IMG/VR virus record: IMGVR_UViG_3300048852_000028
Coordinates: 1 to 46,724 of that record
DNA: 46,724 bases
Strand: one strand, 5' to 3'
Source: a virus
Lineage: Duplodnaviria > Caudoviricetes
The notes beneath the pieces are model-generated. The model made no database searches. It was not told the origin of the DNA and saw only the letters and a list, made by a program, of their open reading frames with translations. Within the stretch, counting starts at the first letter, position 1; each line of letters begins with the position of its first letter. The position numbers and the translations under genes were made by a program. Shown here in pieces: positions 4,936-42,998 of the stretch.

Positions 4936-5679
4936 TCAGAACGGGATATGATCGTCGGCGAGCTGCGAGGCGCGGCTCTGCGGCTTGCCGGCTGGCGGCT
5001 CGCGGTTCTCCGGCATCGCGGTTGGGTCCGAATCGGCCTCAAGCTCCTTGCGCTTGGACTCGTCTACTGACTTCACCCACGCCTGATCCTCCGGGTTGAG
5101 CAGGCTGTATTCCCGCTTGAAGTTCGCGTTCTGCCAGAGCTTGTCGAGCGAGGCGATCGAGGGACGCGCCTTGACGGCCTTGACCATCTCCTCGGCAGGA
5201 GAGGGCTCAGGAGCTGGCCCTTTCTTTTGGGCCTGCTGCTGCCGCTGCGGTGGAGTGTCCTCATCCGCGTCCGGGTCCTCGTAATCGCCAGTAGGGATCT
5301 CGAACAGGGTCAGGTGGAAGTACTTGTGCGCGGACGTGTGGCACTTGTTTAGCGCTTTGTCGTCAAAGCCACCCTTGGTGTTGCGCGCCGCCGCCATGCC
5401 GGTACGGACAATCTTTTCCGGCCACGTATCCCCGCTCTTGTGAGCGATCGTGAACTCGTAGTTCACAGCGAGGATCGTGCCGCCCTCTAGGAACTCACGC
5501 GACTTCTCGTTCTGGAAGACGACAAGACCCTCGCGAGCCATGAGCGGCTGAAGCTTGTGGAGGATGTCGGATGCGGAGGCGTACTTGTAGCGGTGAAACT
5601 CATTCACACCCCGCTTCTCGACGGCGCCAACCTCTTCCATCACCTTCGCAATCGATGTCACAATGGCGCTCATGATCAC
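4936..5679 (-). CDS. ERF-family single-strand annealing recombinase
   Basis: KRGVNEFHRYKYASASDI, KALNKCHTSAHKY, LFEIPTGD-x-DPD; C-terminal DDHIPF. Confidence 0.85.
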   Translation of the reverse strand: MIMSAIVTSIAKVMEEVGAVEKRGVNEFHRYKYASASDILHKLQPLMAREGLVVFQNEKSREFLEGGTILAVNYEFTIAHKSGDTWPEKIVRTGMAAARNTKGGFDDKALNKCHTSAHKYFHLTLFEIPTGDYEDPDADEDTPPQRQQQAQKKGPAPEPSPAEEMVKAVKARPSIASLDKLWQNANFKREYSLLNPEDQAWVKSVDESKRKELEADSDPTAMPENREPPAGKPQSRASQLADDHIPF

Positions 5680-6401
5680 ATCACCTTCTCTTCATGGACT
5701 TTGAGGCCGGGCACAGTCTCGCCACGGACGCCACGGCTCACGAGCTTCGCGGCCATGCCATCGAGGAACTCCTGATACTCATCCTTCTGGTTGGCCCAGA
5801 GGTAGCGGGCGAAGGCGGTGTAGTCCGTCACTTCCGCCCGGTAGGTAGTCCGCAGCCCTTTGGCGCGACCGGCGCCGGTGACGTGCGCCTTGTCCTTCTC
5901 GGCTCGACGGGCGGCCTTTTCTGCTTCCTCAGCCTGCTTGAGTTGTGTCTCGGCAGCCTCACGCGCTTCAAGGTCGTAGCGGTGAGACGCCTGCATGGCC
6001 TCTTCGGCTTTGCGGCGCTCTTCCTCGGCAACTCTACGGGCCTCCTCAGCCTTGGCCCGCTTCTCGTCCTCCATCTTGCGGAGGTATGGCGTCAGAGCTT
6101 GCTTGCAGGCATCCCTGGCCAGATCGCAGCGGGTGAGCAGTGGCTTGAAGGTTTCCTGCACCGCCTTCGCTGCTTCGTCATGTGGACGCTTCTGCTCCAT
6201 GCGCAGCTCATCGGCGACCTTGCGAGCCTTCATGATCATGCCGTCGAGAAGACCAACGGCATCGGCCTGCTTCTGGTCGGCAATCGGCTCTCCGTCGAGG
6301 AACCCCTTCGCCTGGTCAAACAGAACGAGGATCTCGCTTTCGATCGTCTCGAAAGGTGAGGGCGGATTATTGTGGCCGATGCTTGCGATAGCGGCGCTCA
6401 T
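5676..6401 (-). CDS. Coiled-coil phage protein (recombination module)
   Basis: IGHNNPP N-terminus, long Ala/Glu/Arg coiled coil, C-terminal VPGLKV. Confidence 0.75.
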   Translation of the reverse strand: MSAAIASIGHNNPPSPFETIESEILVLFDQAKGFLDGEPIADQKQADAVGLLDGMIMKARKVADELRMEQKRPHDEAAKAVQETFKPLLTRCDLARDACKQALTPYLRKMEDEKRAKAEEARRVAEEERRKAEEAMQASHRYDLEAREAAETQLKQAEEAEKAARRAEKDKAHVTGAGRAKGLRTTYRAEVTDYTAFARYLWANQKDEYQEFLDGMAAKLVSRGVRGETVPGLKVHEEKVM

Positions 6402-6670
6402 TGTTGCTTCCCTTCCTTGGGCAGTTTGATCAGAGGCTTCTGCCATCCGCACTCCTGAGAGAGTTTTGCGGTGGTCTTTGCCTTGAGGCGGTCGGCGTAC
6501 CGGGTGATTGGGCCACGGCCGCGCATGGTGAGAGTTGCTCGCTTCACAGCTTCACCGCCTGACAGACTGAGAAGATGATGAAGCCGACTAATCCGCAGCA
6601 CAGAGCGAGAAGGAACCAAGTCTGAGCGGCGTCACAGAAGGCGCGGCACTTGGGATGCTTGAAGGACATC

Positions 6671-12791: not shown

Positions 12792-13129
12792 AGTACCGTG
12801 CTCCCCATGAAATCGCTGCCGAGATCAGGGCGGCCAAATGGGCAGGAAAATCCCTGACCGAACTTGAGGCTGAGTTCGATATCAGCCGGCGAACTGCCGT
12901 CCGCTACACGAGGGGCGTCACTGTCAGGGCGAGGGCAGGGCGTCAAGCCCAGTACGACCCTGAGAAGGTGCTGAACCTGCTCAAGCAAGGCCTATCGCAA
13001 ACCATCATCAGCGAGCGCCTCGGCATCTCCCGCGCACAGGTCTACCGCATCTGCAAGCGCACCTATGGCGTCGGGCCTTCAGAACTCCCCGCCCATCTCG
13101 CCCGCATGGAATGGAAGGCAGCTGCATGA
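12788..13129 (+). CDS. Tandem-HTH DNA-binding protein
   Basis: SLTELEAEFDISRRTAVRY and LSQTIISERLGISRAQVYRI. Confidence 0.75.
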   Translation: MKYRAPHEIAAEIRAAKWAGKSLTELEAEFDISRRTAVRYTRGVTVRARAGRQAQYDPEKVLNLLKQGLSQTIISERLGISRAQVYRICKRTYGVGPSELPAHLARMEWKAAA

Positions 13130-13809
13130 CGAACCTCCCCCGCTTCGATCTGTCTGCTGAAGTCCAAGAGTGGCTGCAACTTGCTCCTGAGCTCGTTGCG
13201 CAGTTCAAGGAAGTCCCGCCTGTCGACCACACACCCCCGGAGACTTTCGAGGGTCTCACCTGGTTCGTGGTCGTCTGCAATCCGAAGTGTGAGCGGAGGG
13301 CACAACTTGGCCTCCGCCGCTCCGGGTACCAGACGTATCTGCCGGTTGAACGAAAGTATGTCGTGCGCTCTCGCAAGAACGTTGAGACTGAGAACCCGCT
13401 TTTGCCGCGATACCTGTTCCTCGGGCTCCGGGCCTTCGGTCAGGAAGGCGGGCAGGACCTTTACAAGCTTCGTGGCATCGATGGAGTTGAGAAGGTGGTT
13501 AGGTTCGAGGGCGAGCCTCTCACGGTCCACTACAAGCGCCTTGAGATCCTGCGAGATCGGGAGCGGGAAGGGGAATTCGACCACATCAAGCGTGCAGAAG
13601 AAGAGAAAGCGCGCAAGAAGGCTCTCAGGGCCAAGTGCCGCCCCGGTGCCCATGTCAGTCTACTGAACGGTGCCATGGCCGGCTTGCATGCCGTCGTTCA
13701 GAAGGTCCAGTCCGGAGGACGCATCGAGGTGCTAATCGACTTCCTCGGTGGTGTGACAAGGGCTAAACTGAAGCTCGACGAAATTGATTTGATTGAGGCT
13801 GCTGAATGA
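13126..13809 (+). CDS. NusG/RfaH-family antiterminator
   Basis: NGN domain (WFVVVCNPKCE...YLP...PLLPRYLF) plus KOW (PGAHVSLLNGAMAGLHAVV...IEVLIDFLG). Confidence 0.88.
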   Translation: MTNLPRFDLSAEVQEWLQLAPELVAQFKEVPPVDHTPPETFEGLTWFVVVCNPKCERRAQLGLRRSGYQTYLPVERKYVVRSRKNVETENPLLPRYLFLGLRAFGQEGGQDLYKLRGIDGVEKVVRFEGEPLTVHYKRLEILRDREREGEFDHIKRAEEEKARKKALRAKCRPGAHVSLLNGAMAGLHAVVQKVQSGGRIEVLIDFLGGVTRAKLKLDEIDLIEAAE

Positions 13810-14159
13810 AGGCGATGCACGCGATATGCCACCATGTAGATAACAGGCCGGACCACTTCCATTCGGACGGAGAACTGGGTCGCTATCGATCGGGGATCTG
13901 GAAGCTCGAAGCGGACGAAGCATCTGGCCTTAAGGGTGGTTGGCTGTACCTTCATGAGACGAGCAAACAGCGGGCATACCTACGAGCAAAGATCGAGTCC
14001 GTCGAGGGCCCCGATGCTGAAGGGAAATATTGGTTGGTTGTCCGCAAACAGCCAAAGACGGGCAACGTGGCTTGGCGCGGCGCAGTAGCTACTTCAAGCA
14101 GCTATGTCAGGGTTGTCGATGCTACTCTCCCCATCGAAATGGAAAACGCCAGCACCTAG
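13806..14159 (+). CDS. Phage hypothetical protein
   Basis: Coupled to the NusG paralog; LYLHETSKQRAY. Confidence 0.7.
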   Translation: MKAMHAICHHVDNRPDHFHSDGELGRYRSGIWKLEADEASGLKGGWLYLHETSKQRAYLRAKIESVEGPDAEGKYWLVVRKQPKTGNVAWRGAVATSSSYVRVVDATLPIEMENAST

Positions 14160-14260
14160 CACTTGCAACTAAGGCGCTGCCACGCTAGTTATATGTTCAC
14201 AGAGCAGGGCCGTGTGTTGCAGATTTGCCACCGCGTGTCCTGCGTTAGCATTGGTCGAAT

Positions 14261-14292
14261 GCCCCGGCGAGATGATCGCGCGGGGCTTTTTT
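14261..14292 (+). terminator. Intrinsic terminator ending a putative late leader
   Basis: GCCCCG...CGGGGC stem plus T6. Confidence 0.75.
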
Positions 14293-14312
14293 GCGCCTCA
14301 GTGGCCTATTCG

Positions 14313-14615
14313 CTAGCCGCGACCGTAGTACTCGCGCCTCTCCCAGTACGGACGCTCATGATGGCGACGCCACCAGGGACGTGCCCAAGGCGGCGGGCCA
14401 TCACCGCGACGCCAGTGCGGACGATCATAGTGGCGCCGTGGCGGACCACCGTACCTGCGCTCATAGCGCGGTGGGCCATAGTATTGGATGCGCTGCACCA
14501 AGGTACTGGAAGCGTCGGGGATGACTACAGGGCTTGTTAATGGGTTCGCAGAGGCTGTCTGAGCTGCAAAGCCAGCGGCAGCGAGCGCAAGAGCAAAGAC
14601 CACTTTCTTCAACAT
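14313..14615 (-). CDS. Small secreted Arg/Pro/Tyr-rich protein
   Basis: Signal peptide, IQY motif, GAGGAGG RBS. Confidence 0.8.
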   Translation of the reverse strand: MLKKVVFALALAAAGFAAQTASANPLTSPVVIPDASSTLVQRIQYYGPPRYERRYGGPPRRHYDRPHWRRGDGPPPWARPWWRRHHERPYWERREYYGRG

Positions 14616-14704: not shown

Positions 14705-14818
14705 ATGCCCTCTAAACGCAAATCCCACATCCGAGACGACGGCTGCCTCATGATCGAGATAAGCCCCAACCTCTACGTTGAAGAGAGTATCGCTGAGAGG
14801 CTGGGGTTGCTGAGGTAG
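14705..14818 (+). CDS. 37-aa peptide whose 3' end is repeated downstream
   Basis: MPSKRKSHIRDDGCLMIEISPNLYVEESIAERLGLLR*; downstream copies are conserved mainly at the amino-acid level. Confidence 0.6.
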   Translation: MPSKRKSHIRDDGCLMIEISPNLYVEESIAERLGLLR

Positions 14819-14930
14819 TGACCTGGGCCGATGTGACAGCGCAAGCCAGGAAGGATTAATCCCGGAGATATCATTGCTCATCACTTCTCAGAAGGACATT
14901 ATTCCGGAGTCTCCAGACCCGGGTGATGCT

Positions 14931-15044
14931 ATGGAAAGCCTGTTAATTGCTTCTGTCTTCCTGAGCGTGACCCTCACGACCTTCATGCTGCTTGTCACCC
15001 TGACGAACATGGCGAGCCCGATACTTGGATTGACCATCCATTAA
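14931..15044 (+). CDS. Small membrane peptide
   Basis: MESLLIASVFLSVTLTTFMLLVTLTNMASPILGLTIH*. Confidence 0.4.
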   Translation: MESLLIASVFLSVTLTTFMLLVTLTNMASPILGLTIH

Positions 15045-15097
15045 GGCGCTCTCGGCCAATACCTTGAGGACTTGGCTGAGAGTCCGGGGCTGCTGCG

Positions 15098-15253
15098 CTA
15101 GGTTAGCAGAGCCGAGCGATAACTGATTGCCCACACACATAACCCAATACCCACAACGAGAGCGAGCCAGTTCAGGGACCGATCCAGCAATGTAGCGGGC
15201 AGAACGGCAGCGGTTTGGGCGCGCGTCTTCTTCGGTGACAGATCTACCGGCAT
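15098..15253 (-). CDS. Small single-TM protein
   Basis: AAGGA RBS; WLALVVGIGLCVWAISY helix. Confidence 0.5.
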   Translation of the reverse strand: MPVDLSPKKTRAQTAAVLPATLLDRSLNWLALVVGIGLCVWAISYRSALLT

Positions 15254-15302
15254 GATTTGTCCTTCAAAGCTGAAAGGGTTTCGAGGAGGGCGATTGCTCG
15301 GA

Positions 15303-15524
15303 TCAAGCAGGACCACAGGGGCCTGGTGCCAAAGGCGGCAAGCAGGATCCGATCATCTTCTCGTTGTACCAGAGCTCCACCCGGCAGTTGTTTGCTAGGC
15401 TGCTTACCCACTCACGAGCTTGAGCCTCACTGGTCCAAACCACAGTCTTGACGGTGGCTAAGCCAGTAGACGGGTCTACGATGACAGCTTGGTAAGGCTG
15501 GGTTGAGTTGGTCGACCAGTTCAT
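15303..15524 (-). CDS. Small hypothetical protein
   Basis: GAGGTG RBS; EAQAREWVSSLANNCRVELW pattern. Confidence 0.6.
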   Translation of the reverse strand: MNWSTNSTQPYQAVIVDPSTGLATVKTVVWTSEAQAREWVSSLANNCRVELWYNEKMIGSCLPPLAPGPCGPA

Positions 15525-15700
15525 GATGCACCTCAGAGCCTTATGGCGCTTCGAGGTGCGGGGTCGCGCCTAAAAGGGCAGTAGTCGACTTGGGAACCAC
15601 TGATCTATCAAATATGGTGATGGCGGGAGGCTATTTACAGGTCATTCCTTGAGTTGCACAAAGACCAGCAATACCTCGTCGACCGTTAGGTCGGGCGAGC

Positions 15701-15952
15701 CTAATGCAGGGTTTCTGGGATGAACCGCTCACTCCCCATGGTGACCCTGACTGATGCCACCGGTTGCCTCCTGTCGTTTTTGACTTCAACGGTGATCGCG
15801 CCGCCTTTGCTTGCTGGGAGACGATCTGACCCGAATTCACCTGCGATGTGCATTGCGGCGGTCTCGGCAGCATCGATATTCTTCAGGTCCAGCCCGGTTT
15901 CATCAGGCTCGAGGCCGAAACCTTCTCGTAAGTCGAAGTAAAAACGAGGCAC
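15701..15952 (-). CDS. DUF6894-like small protein
   Basis: MPRFYFDLREG...DETGLDLKNIDAA N-terminus. Confidence 0.75.
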   Translation of the reverse strand: MPRFYFDLREGFGLEPDETGLDLKNIDAAETAAMHIAGEFGSDRLPASKGGAITVEVKNDRRQPVASVRVTMGSERFIPETLH

Positions 15953-16078
15953 AGGTCGTGCTCCTAAAAGGACTCAACCCTTAGTTCTGTCCATGGTTCA
16001 TAAGTATTCTCACCACGTTGCCTGACATCAATGCCTCAGACTTCGCGACCACAAAGCAGGGCCGAGAAGGTGGGCTCC

Positions 16079-16186
16079 TCAGAAGCTAAGGAAAGCCATG
16101 GCCAAGAGCCCGACGAAGCCCACGGCAGCGATGCATATGAAGGCTAGCCAAGTTTTGGATCGTCCTTTTGGCACATCGCCGAACAT
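16079..16186 (-). CDS. Small single-TM peptide
   Basis: TGGAGG RBS; MFGDVPKGRSKTWLAFICIAAVGFVGLLAMAFLSF*. Confidence 0.5.
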   Translation of the reverse strand: MFGDVPKGRSKTWLAFICIAAVGFVGLLAMAFLSF

Positions 16187-16414
16187 GAGGCCTCCACTGA
16201 AATTCCCGATAGGTATCTCGTAGGCTTTGATTGAATGTTCTTACGGTCCGCCAGGTAACGTAGGGCCGATCTCAGGGACATCCTTCTCCGCTTCCTCACC
16301 CTGACGCTCAGGTGAAACCAGACGGAACTCCAATTGTCCGAGATGCGCAAGAAGCAGATCTGAACTGTCACCTGCAAAGCTCACTCGGCATACCTGCTGA
16401 GTTGACATTTGAGG

Positions 16415-16639
16415 TTAGTTAGGAAGTGTGTCGTTTGGGTTGACTGCGACATCCGTCACAGTTTCCAGTACAGTACCCGCCACAATGGGCGGCGCTCCTA
16501 GTGAGATGGTGATAGCGGCAGAGCACGCTGGGCAAGCATAGACCGTACCGCTCTGGAGGGCGCCTGAGCTTTCAATGTCGACGCTGTAAGTCTTCACGCT
16601 CAACAATGGCTCTGCGCAGTTAGGACATTTCGCTGACAT
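16415..16639 (-). CDS. Zn-ribbon small protein
   Basis: CPNC...YACPAC. Confidence 0.65.
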   Translation of the reverse strand: MSAKCPNCAEPLLSVKTYSVDIESSGALQSGTVYACPACSAAITISLGAPPIVAGTVLETVTDVAVNPNDTLPN

Positions 16640-17032
16640 GGCACACCCTTAGTCGCATTGCCGGAGTGGAACCTAGTATTGATACCTGGTCAATCGAGGC
16701 TGAATGCCCAAGCTCCTCAATCGCAGAGCAAGGCCGAAAGAACAGTAGCAATTATACTTTAGTTGTGGATCCAGAATTGTGTGACTTTGGTCACAGAGAA
16801 CCACTCCACAGTGAGCCATCCTCATCCTGGCCTGTCGTGTGCGCAGTAGGATTAGGAGAGCGGGATGATGCAGCCGAAGCAGATCGCCCCTGAACCCAGC
16901 CAGAATGCTGTCAAAGAACATGTGAAGGAGATGTTGAGGAAGCTTCCGAGAAGAACGCAGACCTCTAGGCAAGCTCACTCAAATCATTCTTGCAATCTGA
17001 CGAAAAGGCAGGGCTTCTGAGGTAGCGCTGCC

Positions 17033-17140
17033 TTAGATCAGGTGCCCGATCGACATGCCCAGCAAGGCAACGGCTCCCAAGCCATCGATCAGAAGCAAAG
17101 AGTTGATTATCCGCTCGAAGATGGCTTCGCGGTTGAGCAT
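17033..17140 (-). CDS. Small membrane peptide
   Basis: GGAGG RBS; MLNREAIFERIINSLLLIDGLGAVALLGMSIGHLI*. Confidence 0.45.
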   Translation of the reverse strand: MLNREAIFERIINSLLLIDGLGAVALLGMSIGHLI

Positions 17141-17278
17141 GTTTGTGGCCTCCCCATGATACTTCATAGGGAAGCTTCGCCTTAGGCTCTTTGTGCGAGC
17201 GCAAACACTGATGCTTGATGCCCCGGCCAGTACGTAGAGGAGCACCTGGCCGAGAGGCTGGGGCTGTTGAGGTAGTAC

Positions 17279-17848
17279 CTAGCCGTGACGCACCGGTGGC
17301 TTTGCTCCAGACGGAGGAAACCCGGTCTCCATGTCGAACTTTCGCCGCCGGCTCTCAACTAACGGGATCCTCATTCTGATGCTCAAGAGGAGCATTATCG
17401 AAGTGTCCGTGAAGGCTGCCCGCGGTGTTCCATTCGTGGGTGCGCCGAAGATGTTGGTAGAAGTTGATTTCAGGTTGGCAACTCTCGCGGCACGAGACTG
17501 GTCTGAGAGCTTAACCATGATGTCATGCGCGAAGTCATTCCGGATCTTTCTTATGATCTCGCAATCGTCTCTCTCCCGCTGAGATACCAGCCCTAGCGCA
17601 AATGATGCCGATACACGGCTGGAAAATGTCGAGAGTGGCGAGCTACCTCCGCTCGACAAAAGCCTTTTGCTCGCCTCATCTTCGAGGAGGAATGCAGCTA
17701 TCAGCTTCGCAAGCGCGTCATCCAACATCGCGGCACATACCAGTACACACCCGCGTTCGCTCTCATTATTAAGTTCGGCGGTTTTCTGGAAGAGTTCGGG
17801 CAGGAAGTCGGGCGGTGAGCCCGCAAACTGGATCTCGTGATCGCTCAT
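17279..17848 (-). CDS. MtlR-like HEPN-fold protein
   Basis: ESERGCVLV, PLSTFSSRV, IRKIRNDFAH (RxxxxH); GGAGGAG RBS. Confidence 0.8.
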   Translation of the reverse strand: MSDHEIQFAGSPPDFLPELFQKTAELNNESERGCVLVCAAMLDDALAKLIAAFLLEDEASKRLLSSGGSSPLSTFSSRVSASFALGLVSQRERDDCEIIRKIRNDFAHDIMVKLSDQSRAARVANLKSTSTNIFGAPTNGTPRAAFTDTSIMLLLSIRMRIPLVESRRRKFDMETGFPPSGAKPPVRHG

Positions 17849-17944
17849 TTCTCCTCCCGGCCCTGTGATCGAGTAAAACTTACAGCAGTCGTGCCCGTGG
17901 GCAAGCTCACTAATATCAAGCCTCGGTTGTCCTCCGCTCCTCTC

Positions 17945-17985
17945 AGGCTGAGCCAAAAAGAAAGGGCTCCGAAGAGCCCTTATCG
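17945..17985 (-). terminator. Intrinsic terminator
   Basis: AAGGGCTC-TTCG-GAGCCCTT plus a U-run on minus. Confidence 0.75.
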
Positions 17986-18246
17986 TTAGCGACGGACCGT
18001 CCAGCAGCGCTGGACACGTTCCCTTACGATCCTGCCTCGAACGCGCTTGGTCACGGTGTCCCACTTGCACTCCCTATGAGGGCGTCCAAATCGCCCATCG
18101 CCAGGGCGATATTGAGCGTAGGTGATATCGGACTTGGATGAGAGTTCCGGAATACGGACGAGAGGTCGAGCCTGTGGCGCAGGCCCGCTCAGGCTGACGA
18201 ACCCAGCCAGAGCAACAGTAGCGAGCGCGAGCTTTCCAAAAGTCAT
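17986..18246 (-). CDS. Small secreted Arg-rich protein
   Basis: Signal peptide, AQY motif, C...C pair; followed by its own terminator. Confidence 0.75.
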   Translation of the reverse strand: MTFGKLALATVALAGFVSLSGPAPQARPLVRIPELSSKSDITYAQYRPGDGRFGRPHRECKWDTVTKRVRGRIVRERVQRCWTVRR

Positions 18247-18389
18247 AGGTGATCCTTGTTCTTAGTTGAGCCCCGGCGCGCAAAGACACCCCAGCAAGTG
18301 AACAGTTGGTTAATCCAGACATTACGATTTGGTCATGGTGGCGATGCCCAAGCCCCTAGATCACAGAGCAAGGCAGAGAGAACACGACT

Positions 18390-18521
18390 CTACCGCCGTC
18401 TGGTAAAATGGCCGACAGCTGCTCCTAAGGCGATGCCGATGGCAATCCCGATCGCGACGTTGTCCATAGCAGCGCCTAAGGCGGCACCGAGGCCCACACC
18501 AATCGCCATGCCCAGAGCCAT
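18390..18521 (-). CDS. Gly-zipper membrane peptide
   Basis: MALGMAIGVGLGAALGAAMDNVAIGIAIGIALGAAVGHFTRRR*. Confidence 0.6.
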   Translation of the reverse strand: MALGMAIGVGLGAALGAAMDNVAIGIAIGIALGAAVGHFTRRR

Positions 18522-18553
18522 CGTTCAATCTTTCCTATTCGGTAGGGGTCTGA

Positions 18554-18883
18554 ATGATGGCTCCTGATCGCAGAGCCCGCAACCGTGAGCACAACGCCAA
18601 GCGAGGCTCAGCCCGAGAGCGCGGTTACAACACAAGGTGGGAGAAAGCCCGTAAGACCTACCTGATGCGCAATCCCCTGTGCGTCATGTGCCAGAAGGAA
18701 GGGCGAGTGACAGCGGCTACGGTGGTCGATCATATCATCCCGCATAAGGGCGACACCGCTCTGTTCTGGGACACCGAGAACAACTGGATGTCGTTATGCG
18801 CTCACTGTCATAACTCGACAAAACAGCGGATGGAGAAGGGTCGGTTTCAAGTTGTGGGCGAGGATGGCTGGCCTGTTGAGTAG
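18554..18883 (+). CDS. Terminase-associated HNH endonuclease (HK97 gp74-like)
   Basis: RGYNTRW, PLCVMC, VVDHIIPHKGD, LCAHCHNSTK, DGWP. Confidence 0.9.
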   Translation: MMAPDRRARNREHNAKRGSARERGYNTRWEKARKTYLMRNPLCVMCQKEGRVTAATVVDHIIPHKGDTALFWDTENNWMSLCAHCHNSTKQRMEKGRFQVVGEDGWPVE

Positions 18884-19732: not shown

Positions 19733-19971
19733 GCATGATGTTTACCCACATCGGTAGGAAATGGTCGGTTATTCAGATTGGCGGCTCGTTCTTCGCACGT
19801 GATGATCAGGGTTGCGATACTGGCCCGTATTCAACCGCTAAGCCGGCAGCTGAATGGGCCGGAGCCATCAGGCCGTAAGCAAGCCTCACCATAACAGGGA
19901 CAAGCAAAGGGAAGAGCAACGACGCTTTCGGCCTGTGGGTGATGACGGGTGGCCCATATAGGCGGCTGGCT

Positions 19972-20759: not shown

Positions 20760-21155
20760 ATGGCTAAGCGTGGCGCGAAGCCCAAGCCTGCGCATCTTCG
20801 CCTGATCGAAGGAACAAGAAATGTCACGCGCCACGGGACCGAAAAAGAGATCCGTGAGGCGGTTGAGGCGAGCGTTCAGAGTTTCGGGAAGTTGACCCGC
20901 CCTAAGTACCTGAAGGGCGAGGGGTTGGCCGCCTGGAAGAGGTACATCGAGCCAGCGTCTTGGCTGGATGCTTCCAGGGAGCCGGCAGCGATAGCGTTTT
21001 GTGAGTTGTGGCAAGAGTTCCGGTTTGCCCCCACGAGTTTTCCGGCTTCGAAGCATGGGCAGATGCGGGCCTACATGAGCGAGCTCGGCCTGACGGACGA
21101 ACGCAATAGAGGCGATACCGAGCGGGATGACAAAGACGAGTTCTTCGACGACTGA
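20760..21155 (+). CDS. terS: Terminase small subunit
   Basis: RGAKPKPAHLRLIEG N-terminus; ELGLT...R C-terminus. Confidence 0.85.
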   Translation: MAKRGAKPKPAHLRLIEGTRNVTRHGTEKEIREAVEASVQSFGKLTRPKYLKGEGLAAWKRYIEPASWLDASREPAAIAFCELWQEFRFAPTSFPASKHGQMRAYMSELGLTDERNRGDTERDDKDEFFDD

Positions 21156-22979
21156 TCGCGCCACTCTCTATGCAGAGGCCGTCGTCAGAGGCGAAATCGT
21201 TGCTGGCCCCCATGTCCGGAACGCCTGCAGGCGCCATCTGGACGATCTGAAGCGGGATGACATCGCATTTGACCCGGCCGCAGCCACGAAGGCGCTCCGG
21301 TTCTTCGAAGAGAAGCTTCGGCTGAGCGAGGGACAGTTCGAGGTAGGGCTTTCAAGTCTCAGCCTCCGCAGGATTTCATCATCGGGTCGCTGTTCGGCTG
21401 GAAAAAACTGGACGGCCGGCGCCGGTTTCGTCGGGCTTACATCGAGCAGGGCAAGGGGAACGGGAAATCGCCCCTTGCTGGCGGGATTGGGCTCTATGGC
21501 CTGATGGCTGATGGCGAGGCGGGCGCGGAAATCTACTCGGCTGGCGCGACAAAGGACCAAGCTGGCATCCTTTTCCGCGATGCCGTGAAGATGGTCGACA
21601 AATCGCCGGATCTCGACAAGCGCCTCAAACGCAGCGGCGGCCCCGGCAAGGAATACAACCTCGCATATCTCGCCAAAGGGTCGTTTTTCCGACCGGTTTC
21701 GAGGGAGACGAAGAAGACAGGTTCGGGCCCGCGCCCGCATTTCGCGCTTGTGGATGAGGTCCACGAGCATGCGGATGGCGGCATCATCGAGATCCTTGAG
21801 CGCGGCTTCAAATTTCGTCGCCAGCCCCTCTTGCTGATGATCACCAACAGCGGATCCGACCGAAATTCGATCTGCTGGGCTGAACATGAGCATGCAGTGA
21901 GGGTCGCGGCCGGGAACATCGACGCGAAGGACGAAGATGCCCACTATCTGGGCGAAGTGCTGGACGACAACACGTTCTCTTATGTGTGCGCCTTGGATCC
22001 GGGGGATGATCCGCTGAATGACCCCTCCTGCTGGATCAAGGCAAACCCGCTCTTGGGCGTCACGATCACAGAGGAATACCTGCACGGTGTCGTGGCGCAG
22101 GCCAAGGCGATGCCGAGCAAATTGAACGGCATCCTGCGCCTGCACTTCTGCCATTGGACGGACGCGGACACGGCTTGGATGACGCGAGCGGCTCTTGAGC
22201 CTGCCATTGCCGATTTCGAGCCGCACGACCACAAGGGCAAAGAAATCTGGATCGGCTGCGACCTGTCGCAGAACCGGGACATCACCGCCCTCGCGGCGGT
22301 CGTGAAGACAGAAGAGGTTGAGGTAGTGTCCGAGCGCAATGGTCAGACGCAGACCGTTCGCAAGCCAACCTATGATGCCTGGATCGAGGCCTGGACCCCA
22401 GGAGACACCTTGGACGCCCGTTCTTTGAAGGACAAGGCGCCTTATCGACAGTGGGTCGAGGGCGCGCACATCCATGCTCCGAAAGGGGAGAGCATCCGCT
22501 TCGATCACGTCGCGCAAGCCTTGGCGGAATATGCCCACGATTTCAACGTGAAGTGTGTAGCCTATGACCGCTACGCCTTCCGCAGGGGCTTTGAACCGGA
22601 ATGCGCGGCGCTGGGCATCAATGTCGAGTTCGTCGAGCACCCGCAGGGCGGCACAAAAAAGGGCAAGCCAAACGAAGGGATGGCCCAAACGGCAAAGGCG
22701 GCAGGGCGCGAGTCTGAAGGCTTATGGATGCCTGGTTCGGTGCGCGAGCTTGAAGACGCTCTGCTAGAGGGGCGTATTCGGCTGAAGCGGAACCCGGTGC
22801 TGATCTCGGCCATGATGAGCGCAGTCACCGACAACGACCGCTGGGGCAACTACTGGCTGGCGAAAGAGCGGGCCGTGAACAAGATCGACGCCGCTGTGGC
22901 GCTGTGCATGGCGATCGGCGCCGCGAAATCCTACGAAGGCGCAAAGCCTAAACAATTCCACATGCTTATCCTGGGCTGA
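21127..22979 (+). pseudogene. terL: Terminase large subunit with a 1-nt frameshift near 21342
   Basis: The N-terminal frame switches at FE|GRAF into the frame carrying QDFIIGSLFGW, Walker A GKGNGKS, LVDEVHEH and KIDAAVA. Confidence 0.88.
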
Positions 22980-41455: not shown

Positions 41456-41761
41456 ATGGAAACCCGTAAGGTCTGGCTGGGCGGCAGAGAGGTGGATGTT
41501 ACTGCCGATTTCGGTCCGCCACCGACTCCGCCAGCTGATCCGGTTCGGGTCTATAAAGCCCCCATGTTTCGCAAGATGTCTGATGCCGAATACGAGGCCT
41601 ATCTTCAGATCCGGGCTGGCTTTCCGCCGCGCCTGCAGGCGATCTTCGACGCTGCCGAGTTTCTGTCATCCGACGATGAGTTCTGGCCGGCCCTGGTTGG
41701 TGCGGCCGAGCAGGCCTATGGGGCAGATCGGGCAGCTGAGATCTTGGCTCCGACCGTGTGA
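41456..41761 (+). CDS. Putative tail fibre chaperone
   Basis: Small ORF directly after the fibre gene. Confidence 0.55.
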   Translation: METRKVWLGGREVDVTADFGPPPTPPADPVRVYKAPMFRKMSDAEYEAYLQIRAGFPPRLQAIFDAAEFLSSDDEFWPALVGAAEQAYGADRAAEILAPTV

Positions 41762-41847
41762 TTTTGGAACGAAATCTCATCTACGCCACGTCTTGGAGCG
41801 CGTCACTTTGCATGGTAGGTCCTCGGACTTCATGAACTGGTGGGGAC

Positions 41848-42998
41848 ATGCAAGAGCAAGGACAGCAGTCGACGGGCAGGATTTACCTCCCCCAATTGGA
41901 TGGGCTTCGATTTGTGGCTTTTTTTTGGTCCTAATCCACCATCATATAACTGCTAGGTATTACTTCCCGGCTGAATCAAAGGTCGGCGCTCTCCTTGGCG
42001 GCATAAGCACATTCGGTTGGGCGGGCGTCGATATTTTCCTAACACTGTCCAGTTTTCTAATCGTGACCTTGCTCATGCTGGAACGGAAGGTAACTGGGAC
42101 GATCTCGATCAGAGGCTTTTACATCCGGAGGGCCCTCCGGATCTGGCCGCTCTATCTGGGCTTTGTGGTGTTCGGGATTGTGCTGCTTCCGCTCGTGCTC
42201 CCCGCGGCGCAGCCCTATTGGGACAACGTTCGGTGGCATCTCTTCCTGTACCTGACATTTACGGGCAATTTTTCGTATGCCTACTTCCCGGCACTCAACT
42301 ACGCAGCGCATCTCTGGACCATCTCACTTGAGGAACAATTCTATTTAGTGGTCCCGGTACTCGTCGTCTTGGCCCCGCTCCTAGGCAGGTCGCTCGGGTG
42401 GTGGGCTCTTGGACTTATGGTGATCGCCGCGGCGTTTCGGCTCTACATCCAGGCTAACGGGGTTAAGTATCCGATCATCTGGGTTATGCCAGTGACCCGG
42501 CTCGATCCCTTCGTTGTCGGCGCAGTATGCGCTTGGATCTACTCAAGCCAGCGCCATTTGCTCAGCGAAAAAGTTGGTTGGCCTCTGGCAGTTTGTGGGG
42601 TCGCCGGTTTCGCATTGGTGGCGCAGGGCGATTACATCGGAGGTCGTTCTCTGGACGCCGTGTGGCAGTTCACACTTGTAGCAATAAGTTCTGGAGCGCT
42701 GCTGCTCTCGGCGTTGTCGAAGGCCGGAATAGGTCGAATGCTCTCGTGGCCGCCGGTCGTTTTCCTCGGCAAGATCTCATTTGGACTCTACGTCTATCAC
42801 TTGCTGCCGATTATGCTGGAGCAACGATTTCTTGGGCTCGGGGATCGGCTCGGCAAGACGCCTGCAACCTGGCTCCTCATTCTCGCGATCGTGTTCTCTG
42901 CGACAGTGCTTCTGGCCGTCGCCTCGTACTATGGGTTTGAACGTCGCTTCGTCCGATTGAAGGAGCGATATGAGCGAATAAAGTCGCGCCCGGCCTAA
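41848..42998 (+). pseudogene. Acyltransferase-3 (OafA-like O-acetyltransferase), out of frame at T8 (41919-41926)
   Basis: N-terminus RIYLPQLDGLRFVA is in one frame; GVDIFLTLS, FYIRRALRIWPLY, HLWTISLEEQFY and LGKISFGLYVYH are in the -1 frame. Confidence 0.88.

Follow-up and report, generated by a model that had tools for sequence, protein, structure and literature searches.

The array between the nusG paralogue and the HNH gene

The window analysed here is the whole 46.7-kb viral record IMGVR_UViG_3300048852_000028 (46,724 nucleotides), a temperate tailed phage of the Microvirga type with integrase, Erf and exonuclease, repressor, NusG paralogue, HNH, terminase, head, tail and lysis genes. 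Between its nusG paralogue and its HNH gene (GC 0.549 there versus 0.611) lies an array of small cargo genes interspersed with relics of core genes, namely 3' ends of a 37-aa gene, here called S, and starts of the HNH gene. The nearest named relatives of the HNH and nusG proteins are from Microvirga, and window bases 1058–1117 match the terminal part of a Microvirga tRNA-Pro gene and represent an attachment fragment; a tRNA search of the window found none. The X3, X5 and X6 contigs from public runs overlap and track most of the array at about 90–97% identity, and the array is therefore not an assembly artefact. Run X1, a possible source sample, was not treated as independent evidence.

The left anchor of the locus is a NusG/RfaH-paralogue antiterminator gene (13111–13809, + strand) that matches the Pfam NusG model (E 3e-11) and the RfaH and UpxY models below their cut-offs. 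This RfaH/UpxY-like paralogue occupies the late-antiterminator position, with a conserved leader downstream (13111–14295 together). The leader itself (14162–14295, + strand) is common to relatives, folds into a hairpin followed by a U-tract, was not listed by the terminator scanner and likely acts as a late promoter/terminator. Its start matches the HNH-start repeat in only a few alleles, which we treated as chance. The right anchor is the intact HNH endonuclease gene (18554–18883, + strand), identified by profile matches and located upstream of the terminase genes. Neither an integrase nor a tRNA gene was found within the interval.

S (14705–14818, + strand) was found in all 23 loci reached via the nusG paralogue, behind the late leader, a few of these being the same prophage twice; in several relatives it comes directly after the leader. 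It is present in 22 of 76 Microvirga genomes, yet in only 3 of 401 genomes sampled across the family, and 153 protein representatives match it at E ≤ 0.001. The locus survey, a dN/dS of 0.17 and a structure model of three strands and one helix (pLDDT 86.5) show that S is a real core gene. No family in Pfam, PHROG or NCBIfam matched it, and a Foldseek comparison of the model, limited to viral structures, gave no match at E ≤ 0.001. A second core gene, T (39–51 aa), is intact in L087:9234–9377, overlaps the HNH start with its stop in several phages and is duplicated in L098 and L119; it had no match in NCBIfam, and neither S nor T had a usable match in Atlas. Compact relatives have the order leader, S, T, HNH, with an S–HNH distance of 150–800 bp (minimum 147 bp) and with cargo abutting the S stop or the HNH start. 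A long form of S (~75 aa), with two AERL.L.R-like endings around a GGIVG.GKPY.VGE insert, occurs at L099:9657–9884, at L083:10059–10283 and in P0001, and recombination between these inner repeats may have produced the short form. The S end also looks like the E. coli ops element, but this comparison was set aside because the bases after the stop are not conserved.

A preliminary description of this DNA had noted five stretches of S 3' end, the intact gene and four relics, together with convergent cargo open reading frames (ORFs) that stop at 15098, 16079, 17033 and 17279, and direct reading bore out both observations. Relic 1 (15051–15101, + strand; 24.7 bits) has a left junction identical to that in the chromosomal locus L270. 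Relic 2 is part of a fused junction (16031–16089, + strand) in which an HNH-start relic joins the S end at a shared microhomology. Relic 3 (16999–17025) follows a short, weak start relic (19 nt) of a second HNH type, the two spanning 16968–17025 (+ strand) and the S part being identified by its profile score. Relic 4 (17219–17275, + strand; 42.9 bits) is the point inside which X5, X6 and X7 relatives diverge from the window. With a 27-nt S-end profile made from the alleles of 13 other phages, and hence non-circular, the top + strand ranks were 17249 (42.9 bits), 14792 (40.4), 15075 (24.7) and 16999 (15.6), followed by a + strand match of 6.6 bits and a best − strand match of 8.3 bits. The best scores from 300 shuffled versions of the interval reached 8.7 at the 95th percentile and 15.9 at most. 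The expectation that the motif exceeds shuffled sequence therefore held for 17249, 14792 and 15075, was borderline for 16999 and failed for the relic at 16061 taken alone, since 34% of 200 gap-allowed shuffles reached the score of this relic, which counts against its significance. We nevertheless uphold the 16061 relic because the base absent from it (gap behind 16071) is present in contigs of six of seven public runs, the seventh having no coverage there, and because the register in which it is joined to the HNH-start relic recurs at four junctions from other phages or genomes. Of 88 stops of S and S relics, which are partly non-independent, 33 lie at most 12 nt from the end of a convergent ORF, compared with 11% of random positions. 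A possible sixth S end, very worn and not significant alone, lies at 16389–16416 just before the zinc-ribbon cargo; L265 has a clear S relic at the corresponding place.

Beyond what the preliminary description reported, the interval holds five HNH-start relics and one T relic, the start of the HNH gene being the second repeat family of the window. Three of these relics begin at 16031, 16704 (16704–16744, + strand, type 1; repeat and profile search) and 18344 (18344–18391, + strand, type 1; 93% to the start of the intact L095 HNH gene), and two derive from the second HNH type, at 16968 (weak) and 17897 (17897–17951, + strand; 43 bits, with intact forms in L083 and L094). The T copy (16276–16366, + strand) is broken, with its start lost and an internal stop, and sits in the interval as T does between S and HNH in compact relatives. 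Relatives carry the same mix of S ends, HNH starts and T.

The following cargo ORFs lie on the − strand. A 100-aa ORF with a signal-peptide-like start (14313–14615), located between the leader and S, has homologues in L082, L255, L271 and L277, and a 49-aa ORF (14888–15037) belongs to a module, from the S end to the next relic, that is common to L270. Three ORFs follow within 15098–15952 (15098–15316, 15303–15524 and 15701–15952, the last with a DUF6894 domain match), and then a hydrophobic 35-aa ORF (16079–16186) and a zinc-ribbon-like gene (16415–16639) in a block, 16409–16744, that spans S relic to HNH relic in L265. Further downstream are an ORF whose true start is probably further in (17033–17245; 93% in L120), an MtlR-like gene of 189 aa (17279–17848; Pfam MtlR E 5e-5, just under the cut-off), an 86-aa ORF with a signal-peptide-like start and HNH-start relics on both sides (17986–18246), which recurs as the same module in L082, L092 and L120, and a glycine-zipper-like ORF of 43 aa (18390–18521; ORF list and domain search). 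None of the 12 window cargo genes matched a defence family, and neither a toxin family nor a toxin–immunity pairing was seen among them.

Relics and modules across related loci

When each related locus was oriented by its main match (three unoriented loci were omitted), all 187 matches to S, T or the HNH start of at least 10 bits were co-oriented within their loci. S matches of at least 10 bits numbered 16 in the 35.7 kb inside the intervals, two of which were added by hand and one of which (L099) is the inner repeat of the long intact form, versus none in 375 kb outside. The S–HNH interval ranged from 147 to 3740 bp in 28 phages, that of the window being the longest, and S relic number rose with its length (rho 0.57, n = 28), in keeping with an earlier suggestion that relic number tracks cargo; for S and HNH relics together, with weak relics added by hand and near-duplicates kept, rho was 0.74 (n = 28). 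HNH-start and T relics were as common as S relics. The two-sided, co-oriented relics and the length correlation indicate that each module would be a piece of a donor phage's S-to-HNH interval, with whichever gene ends came along. Three relics of the window are closer to alleles of other phages than to its own S, and modules do bring a homologous S 3' end from other alleles, as had been proposed. The variable genes lie between conserved core genes in related phages, as at accessory (moron) hot spots of temperate phages.

The outer ends of the relics are fixed at the S stop or the HNH ATG, whereas the inner edges are scattered, with 24–91 nt kept among 45 S relics in 35 flank clusters. No decay order was found along the arrays, relic 1 of the window being weak and relic 4 the strongest, and the relics of L082 scoring 69, 14 and 88 bits; block-wise stacking therefore fits better than insertion at the first position.

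Comparison of relatives revealed gain, loss and swap of modules with breakpoints in S copies, as the preliminary description had anticipated. A 414-bp module distinguishes L089, L100 and L102 from L097 and L101, the ends of this indel being in register in S and its relic, and the window module 14798–15070 recurs in L270 with both ends in S copies. The X5 and X6 contigs match the window to 17223, inside relic 4, and then continue into other DNA, while L120 matches window 17033–18780 at 96.5%; from these alignments, the window is likely a recombinant at relic 4. One X1 contig, which may be from another phage, joins 14803 to 16072 in register. Multi-gene blocks are common to relatives as units, and recent shared blocks (≥90%) mostly end in S, T or HNH-start copies, although few independent phage clusters are represented. 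Short conserved module-end sequences thus coincide with crossover points, as described for phage boundary sequences.

A Tudor/Agenet-domain gene accompanies an S relic in four Microvirga loci (L261:4390–4911, L265, L267 and L268) and is flanked by two S relics in L265 and L267.

Because automated fusion calling gave 12 of 300 false positives, we restricted the junctions to those starting at the HNH ATG. Eight clear fusions of an HNH start to an S end were obtained, five of which (window 16031, L082 10957, L098 10935, L122 and L272) share one register, with 54–57 nt from ATG to stop and different flanks. This favoured register falls on a microhomology of ~16 nt between the HNH and S genes, with up to 14/16 bases matching. 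A sixth fusion lies on a second microhomology (RKTY codons, up to 15/16), and the other two lie elsewhere. Among the ten best registers by mean, these two hold the best single matches (14/16 and 15/16). Exact scans for more fused junctions gave none in viral contigs and only the known L082 junction in genomes.

Proposed out-of-register recombination and its rivals

Taken together, these results suggest that the S–HNH region is an accessory hot spot in which related phages likely recombined out of register, leaving the relics as scars that were then likely used again as homology pads, a reading to which we assign a probability of about two in three. Starting from the compact leader–S–T–HNH phages with cargo abutting the S stop or the HNH start, a crossover joining one phage's HNH start to another phage's S end would stack both cargo blocks and leave a scar between them, with the ~16-nt microhomology favoured and other registers also used. 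In-register recombination between copies of S, T or the HNH start would then remove or replace modules, as the sequence pattern indicates, and deletion would trim the scars from the inner side so that the cargo-touching end survives. The enzymes are probably general ones, such as phage annealing proteins like Erf, or host RecA, and a dedicated recombinase would not be needed. The window encodes a candidate, the Erf-like annealing protein (4936–5679, − strand), next to an exonuclease gene (5676–6452). Erf was found in three of five viral records and two of five genomes; it was not detected in G002 or in G461, the genomes or records that contain the L082 and L098 arrays and that may both be incomplete. 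RecT was found in G002 on another contig and in none of the other four genomes. A requirement for ERF, which the preliminary description had suggested as a possible recombinase, is thus not supported, given two relic-rich relatives in which it was not found. Variable edges, the lack of attC and the absence of ERF in these two relatives make a dedicated cassette machine unlikely. Erf remains a plausible enzyme for the recombination, and in the available text of one report the D3 phage Erf matched lambda Red in efficiency when recombining substrates of 78% identity (PMC3945230).

Several points weigh against this account. Averaged over alleles, the favoured register ranks only third of 225 (mean 8.8 versus 6.8 ± 1.2), and a single old hybrid that exchanged its flanks could be the ancestor of all five fusions in this register. 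Many relics are one-sided, with unrelated DNA upstream of the S relic, so that microhomology accounts for some joins only, and the lengths of the relic edges are not uniform (KS p 0.025). The comparison of the window relics with foreign alleles takes the best of 13 others. A pooled breakpoint count, in which 96 ends fell in core elements of both aligned sequences, 17 in those of one sequence, 99 in those of neither and 10 at edges, is confounded by alignments that enter HNH or stop at diverged cargo ends. Pads of 25–60 nt are short for RecA, and the evidence for recombination is all comparative.

The preliminary description had treated S as a one-sided, integron-like landing pad. In its strict form, circles with one S 3' end would enter the intact S by ERF and push older cassettes downstream, which would explain the S-bounded modules (the 414-bp module, L270 and S–Tudor–S in L265 and L267) and the constant restoration of S upstream. 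However, HNH-start relics bound the modules on the other side, HNH-start and T relics are as common as S relics, the inner edges are scattered, no age gradient runs along the arrays, several-gene blocks are shared as units and ERF was not found in the possibly incomplete G002 and G461, and we regard this route as unlikely. Slightly less probable again is a purely passive origin, in which random illegitimate joins and deletion trimming left relics that were never reused. Such scars would have scattered inner edges, and geometry alone would bring flanking-gene ends into joins when cargo abuts them; this explanation is already weakened by the in-register 414-bp indel, by the in-register X1 joint (one contig, maybe of another phage) and by the different cargo found within the same relic pair at aspS (see below).

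Selection of the relics as cis signals, whether a hairpin guarding convergent cargo mRNA, a ribosome-binding site or an antiterminator loading site, appears improbable. Some alleles and relics do form hairpins (z to −3.1; mean z −1.0 to −1.7 versus synonymous recoding), and several phages have an ATG after the S end, but a fold of 20 S alleles gave no consensus pair, the stems differ among copies, relics down to 24 nt lack a hairpin, and Rfam gave no family at threshold and one sub-threshold match, outside the array. The least probable explanation, by now largely refuted, is that a site in the S end is acted on by a dedicated site-specific recombinase, whether integron-like, Xer/dif-like or the phage's own integrase. 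The relics have the stop codon as their fixed outer end, and a tyrosine integrase is present; this integrase, however, lies 12 kb from the array beside the tRNA-Pro attachment fragment and scores 27.9 bits against an IntI cut-off of 265. The interval contains no attC-like end pair (RYYYAAC...GTTRRRY, which, together with a conserved single-stranded DNA hairpin, we take to define attC), so that the earlier statement that attC and IntI are absent holds. The combination of fixed outer and scattered inner edges, with no fixed crossover point at the junctions, excludes a site-specific crossover, as do the missing attC, fold and IntI, and synonymous divergence extends throughout the repeat. The constant-length fragments with an integrase per island that mark tRNA-type tandem islands were not found either.

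Array building of the kind preferred here has published precedents. For type VI secretion system (T6SS) arrays of Vibrio cholerae, the available text proposes integrase-free stacking by homology-facilitated illegitimate recombination and homologous replacement (PMC5361080). Those arrays, as far as that text describes them, likewise resemble integrons without an integrase and retain displaced 3' gene ends; their anchor is an effector and their cargo the cognate immunity genes (PMC5361080), whereas the present cargo is unrelated and mostly antisense, and the present scars derive from both flanking genes, in a phage late operon. In contact-dependent inhibition (CDI) and Rhs loci, the accessible part of the account describes orphan modules that keep varying lengths of the conserved gene, are shared motif to motif and are loaded onto the main gene by deletions (PMC3150448). 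We found the same variable-length truncated copies of a conserved gene heading modules, repeat-to-repeat sharing and in-register deletion onto the main gene, but no toxin C-terminus with cognate immunity cargo; unlike the CDI/Rhs arrangement in that account, the present relic ends in a stop and is unfused to the cargo (PMC3150448), so that recombination changes passengers rather than a protein domain. The array thus works like the sequential-displacement arrays of T6SS, the orphan modules of CDI and Rhs loci and phage boundary sequences, and is a member of none of the toxin systems among them.

Gene 68 of mycobacteriophage Island3 is, in the available text, an insertion flanked by a second copy of 18 codons from the upstream gene's 3' end and ascribed to general recombination (PMC3029335); in contrast to this single event, arrays of several modules occur across the present phage family, with scars on both sides and a favoured microhomology between the two genes. 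P2/P4 hot spots, according to the part of the report that is available, show fast cargo swaps between core genes, pseudogene remnants of core genes and homologues in cryptic islands, with the mechanism left open (PMC13586616). The present locus is a phage hot spot of this type and shares the swapping between core genes, the small remnants and the chromosomal homologues, but that text does not map remnants as reusable pads (PMC13586616), and the window cargo lacks a defence match (0/12). Integrons likewise array small single-gene passengers between repeats, yet the array is not an integron, having no IntI, attC, fixed crossover or age order and carrying cargo mostly opposite to the upstream promoter. 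The label of an undescribed system was therefore overstated, because the T6SS, CDI and single-gene mycobacteriophage precedents are published: array building by general recombination is known, and what sets this locus apart is the two-sided scars and the favoured microhomology. Searches of main texts in the open-access literature turned up no description of the Microvirga locus, of the aspS slot or of scars on two sides combined with a favoured microhomology between genes. According to the available text on P2/P4, the processes by which temperate phages gain and exchange hot-spot genes still await elucidation (PMC13586616). Here, scars legible at base level on both module sides, a predicted favoured crossover and natural gain/loss pairs make the mechanism directly testable.

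Chromosomal copies upstream of aspS and neighbouring loci

S relics were also found upstream of aspS in 5 of 19 Microvirga loci, ~1.5 kb upstream being covered for most. G031, G005, G034 and G071 (the last covered over 3 kb only) share the right-hand junction of a pair made up of an S end and an HNH start, but this pair encloses four unrelated cargos of 322–774 bp. Among the aspS-slot cargos, that of L261 matches the PD-T7-4 defence model (E 8e-16), and for another a homologue (57%) is found in phage locus L122. No phage genes were recognised in the 11-kb stretches around the G031, G005, G034 and G074 loci. On one reading of these sequences, the S-end/HNH-start pair in the chromosome would exchange cargo with phages. 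Alternatively, the cargos may differ through differential loss from one long ancestral array, or the whole aspS island may have moved between species. On the aspS tree, five changes are required for the slot-bearing genomes; with a single firm inner branch out of 15, however, the tree is compatible with one origin. L252 is a decayed remnant at the tRNA-Pro site of the window that has kept S, and chromosomal copies can therefore arise by prophage decay. A bolder and only tentative proposal is a system of cassette exchange without an integrase, made up of the S end and the HNH start, in which microhomology would seed the arrays and the phage-free aspS pair would dock and trade passengers, including the PD-T7-4-like gene, by double crossover. 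If the aspS slot does trade with phages, phage gene fragments of 40–70 nt would make a chromosomal intergenic site a reusable entry point for defence and other genes, and S/HNH relic pairs would flag candidate cargo genes in Microvirga genomes. To the right of the slot, L261:5750–6000 holds a multi-copy Microvirga repeat, present in 52 of 76 genomes, that begins with GTTC-N7-GTTC, resembling the alphaproteobacterial LexA box.

On the packaging side of the locus, L093:10279–10300 and L116:1847–1868 mark a divergence ~20 nt into the HNH start after 98% identity over S, cargo and T. The two phages differ in HNH subtype and their terminases are divergent, and this split indicates that the HNH start also bounds the packaging-gene module. 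Downstream of the intact HNH gene, window 19890–19958 is a relic of an HNH C-terminus (61% over 23 aa), with more cargo before terS; this is a second scarred slot, and the same is found in L125. The large terminase is annotated as two overlapping ORFs (125 aa and 491 aa; 21127–22979), which suggests a frameshift or a split gene. Further along the window, an O-antigen acetylase-like gene (41496–42998) has tail genes on one side and lysis genes on the other.

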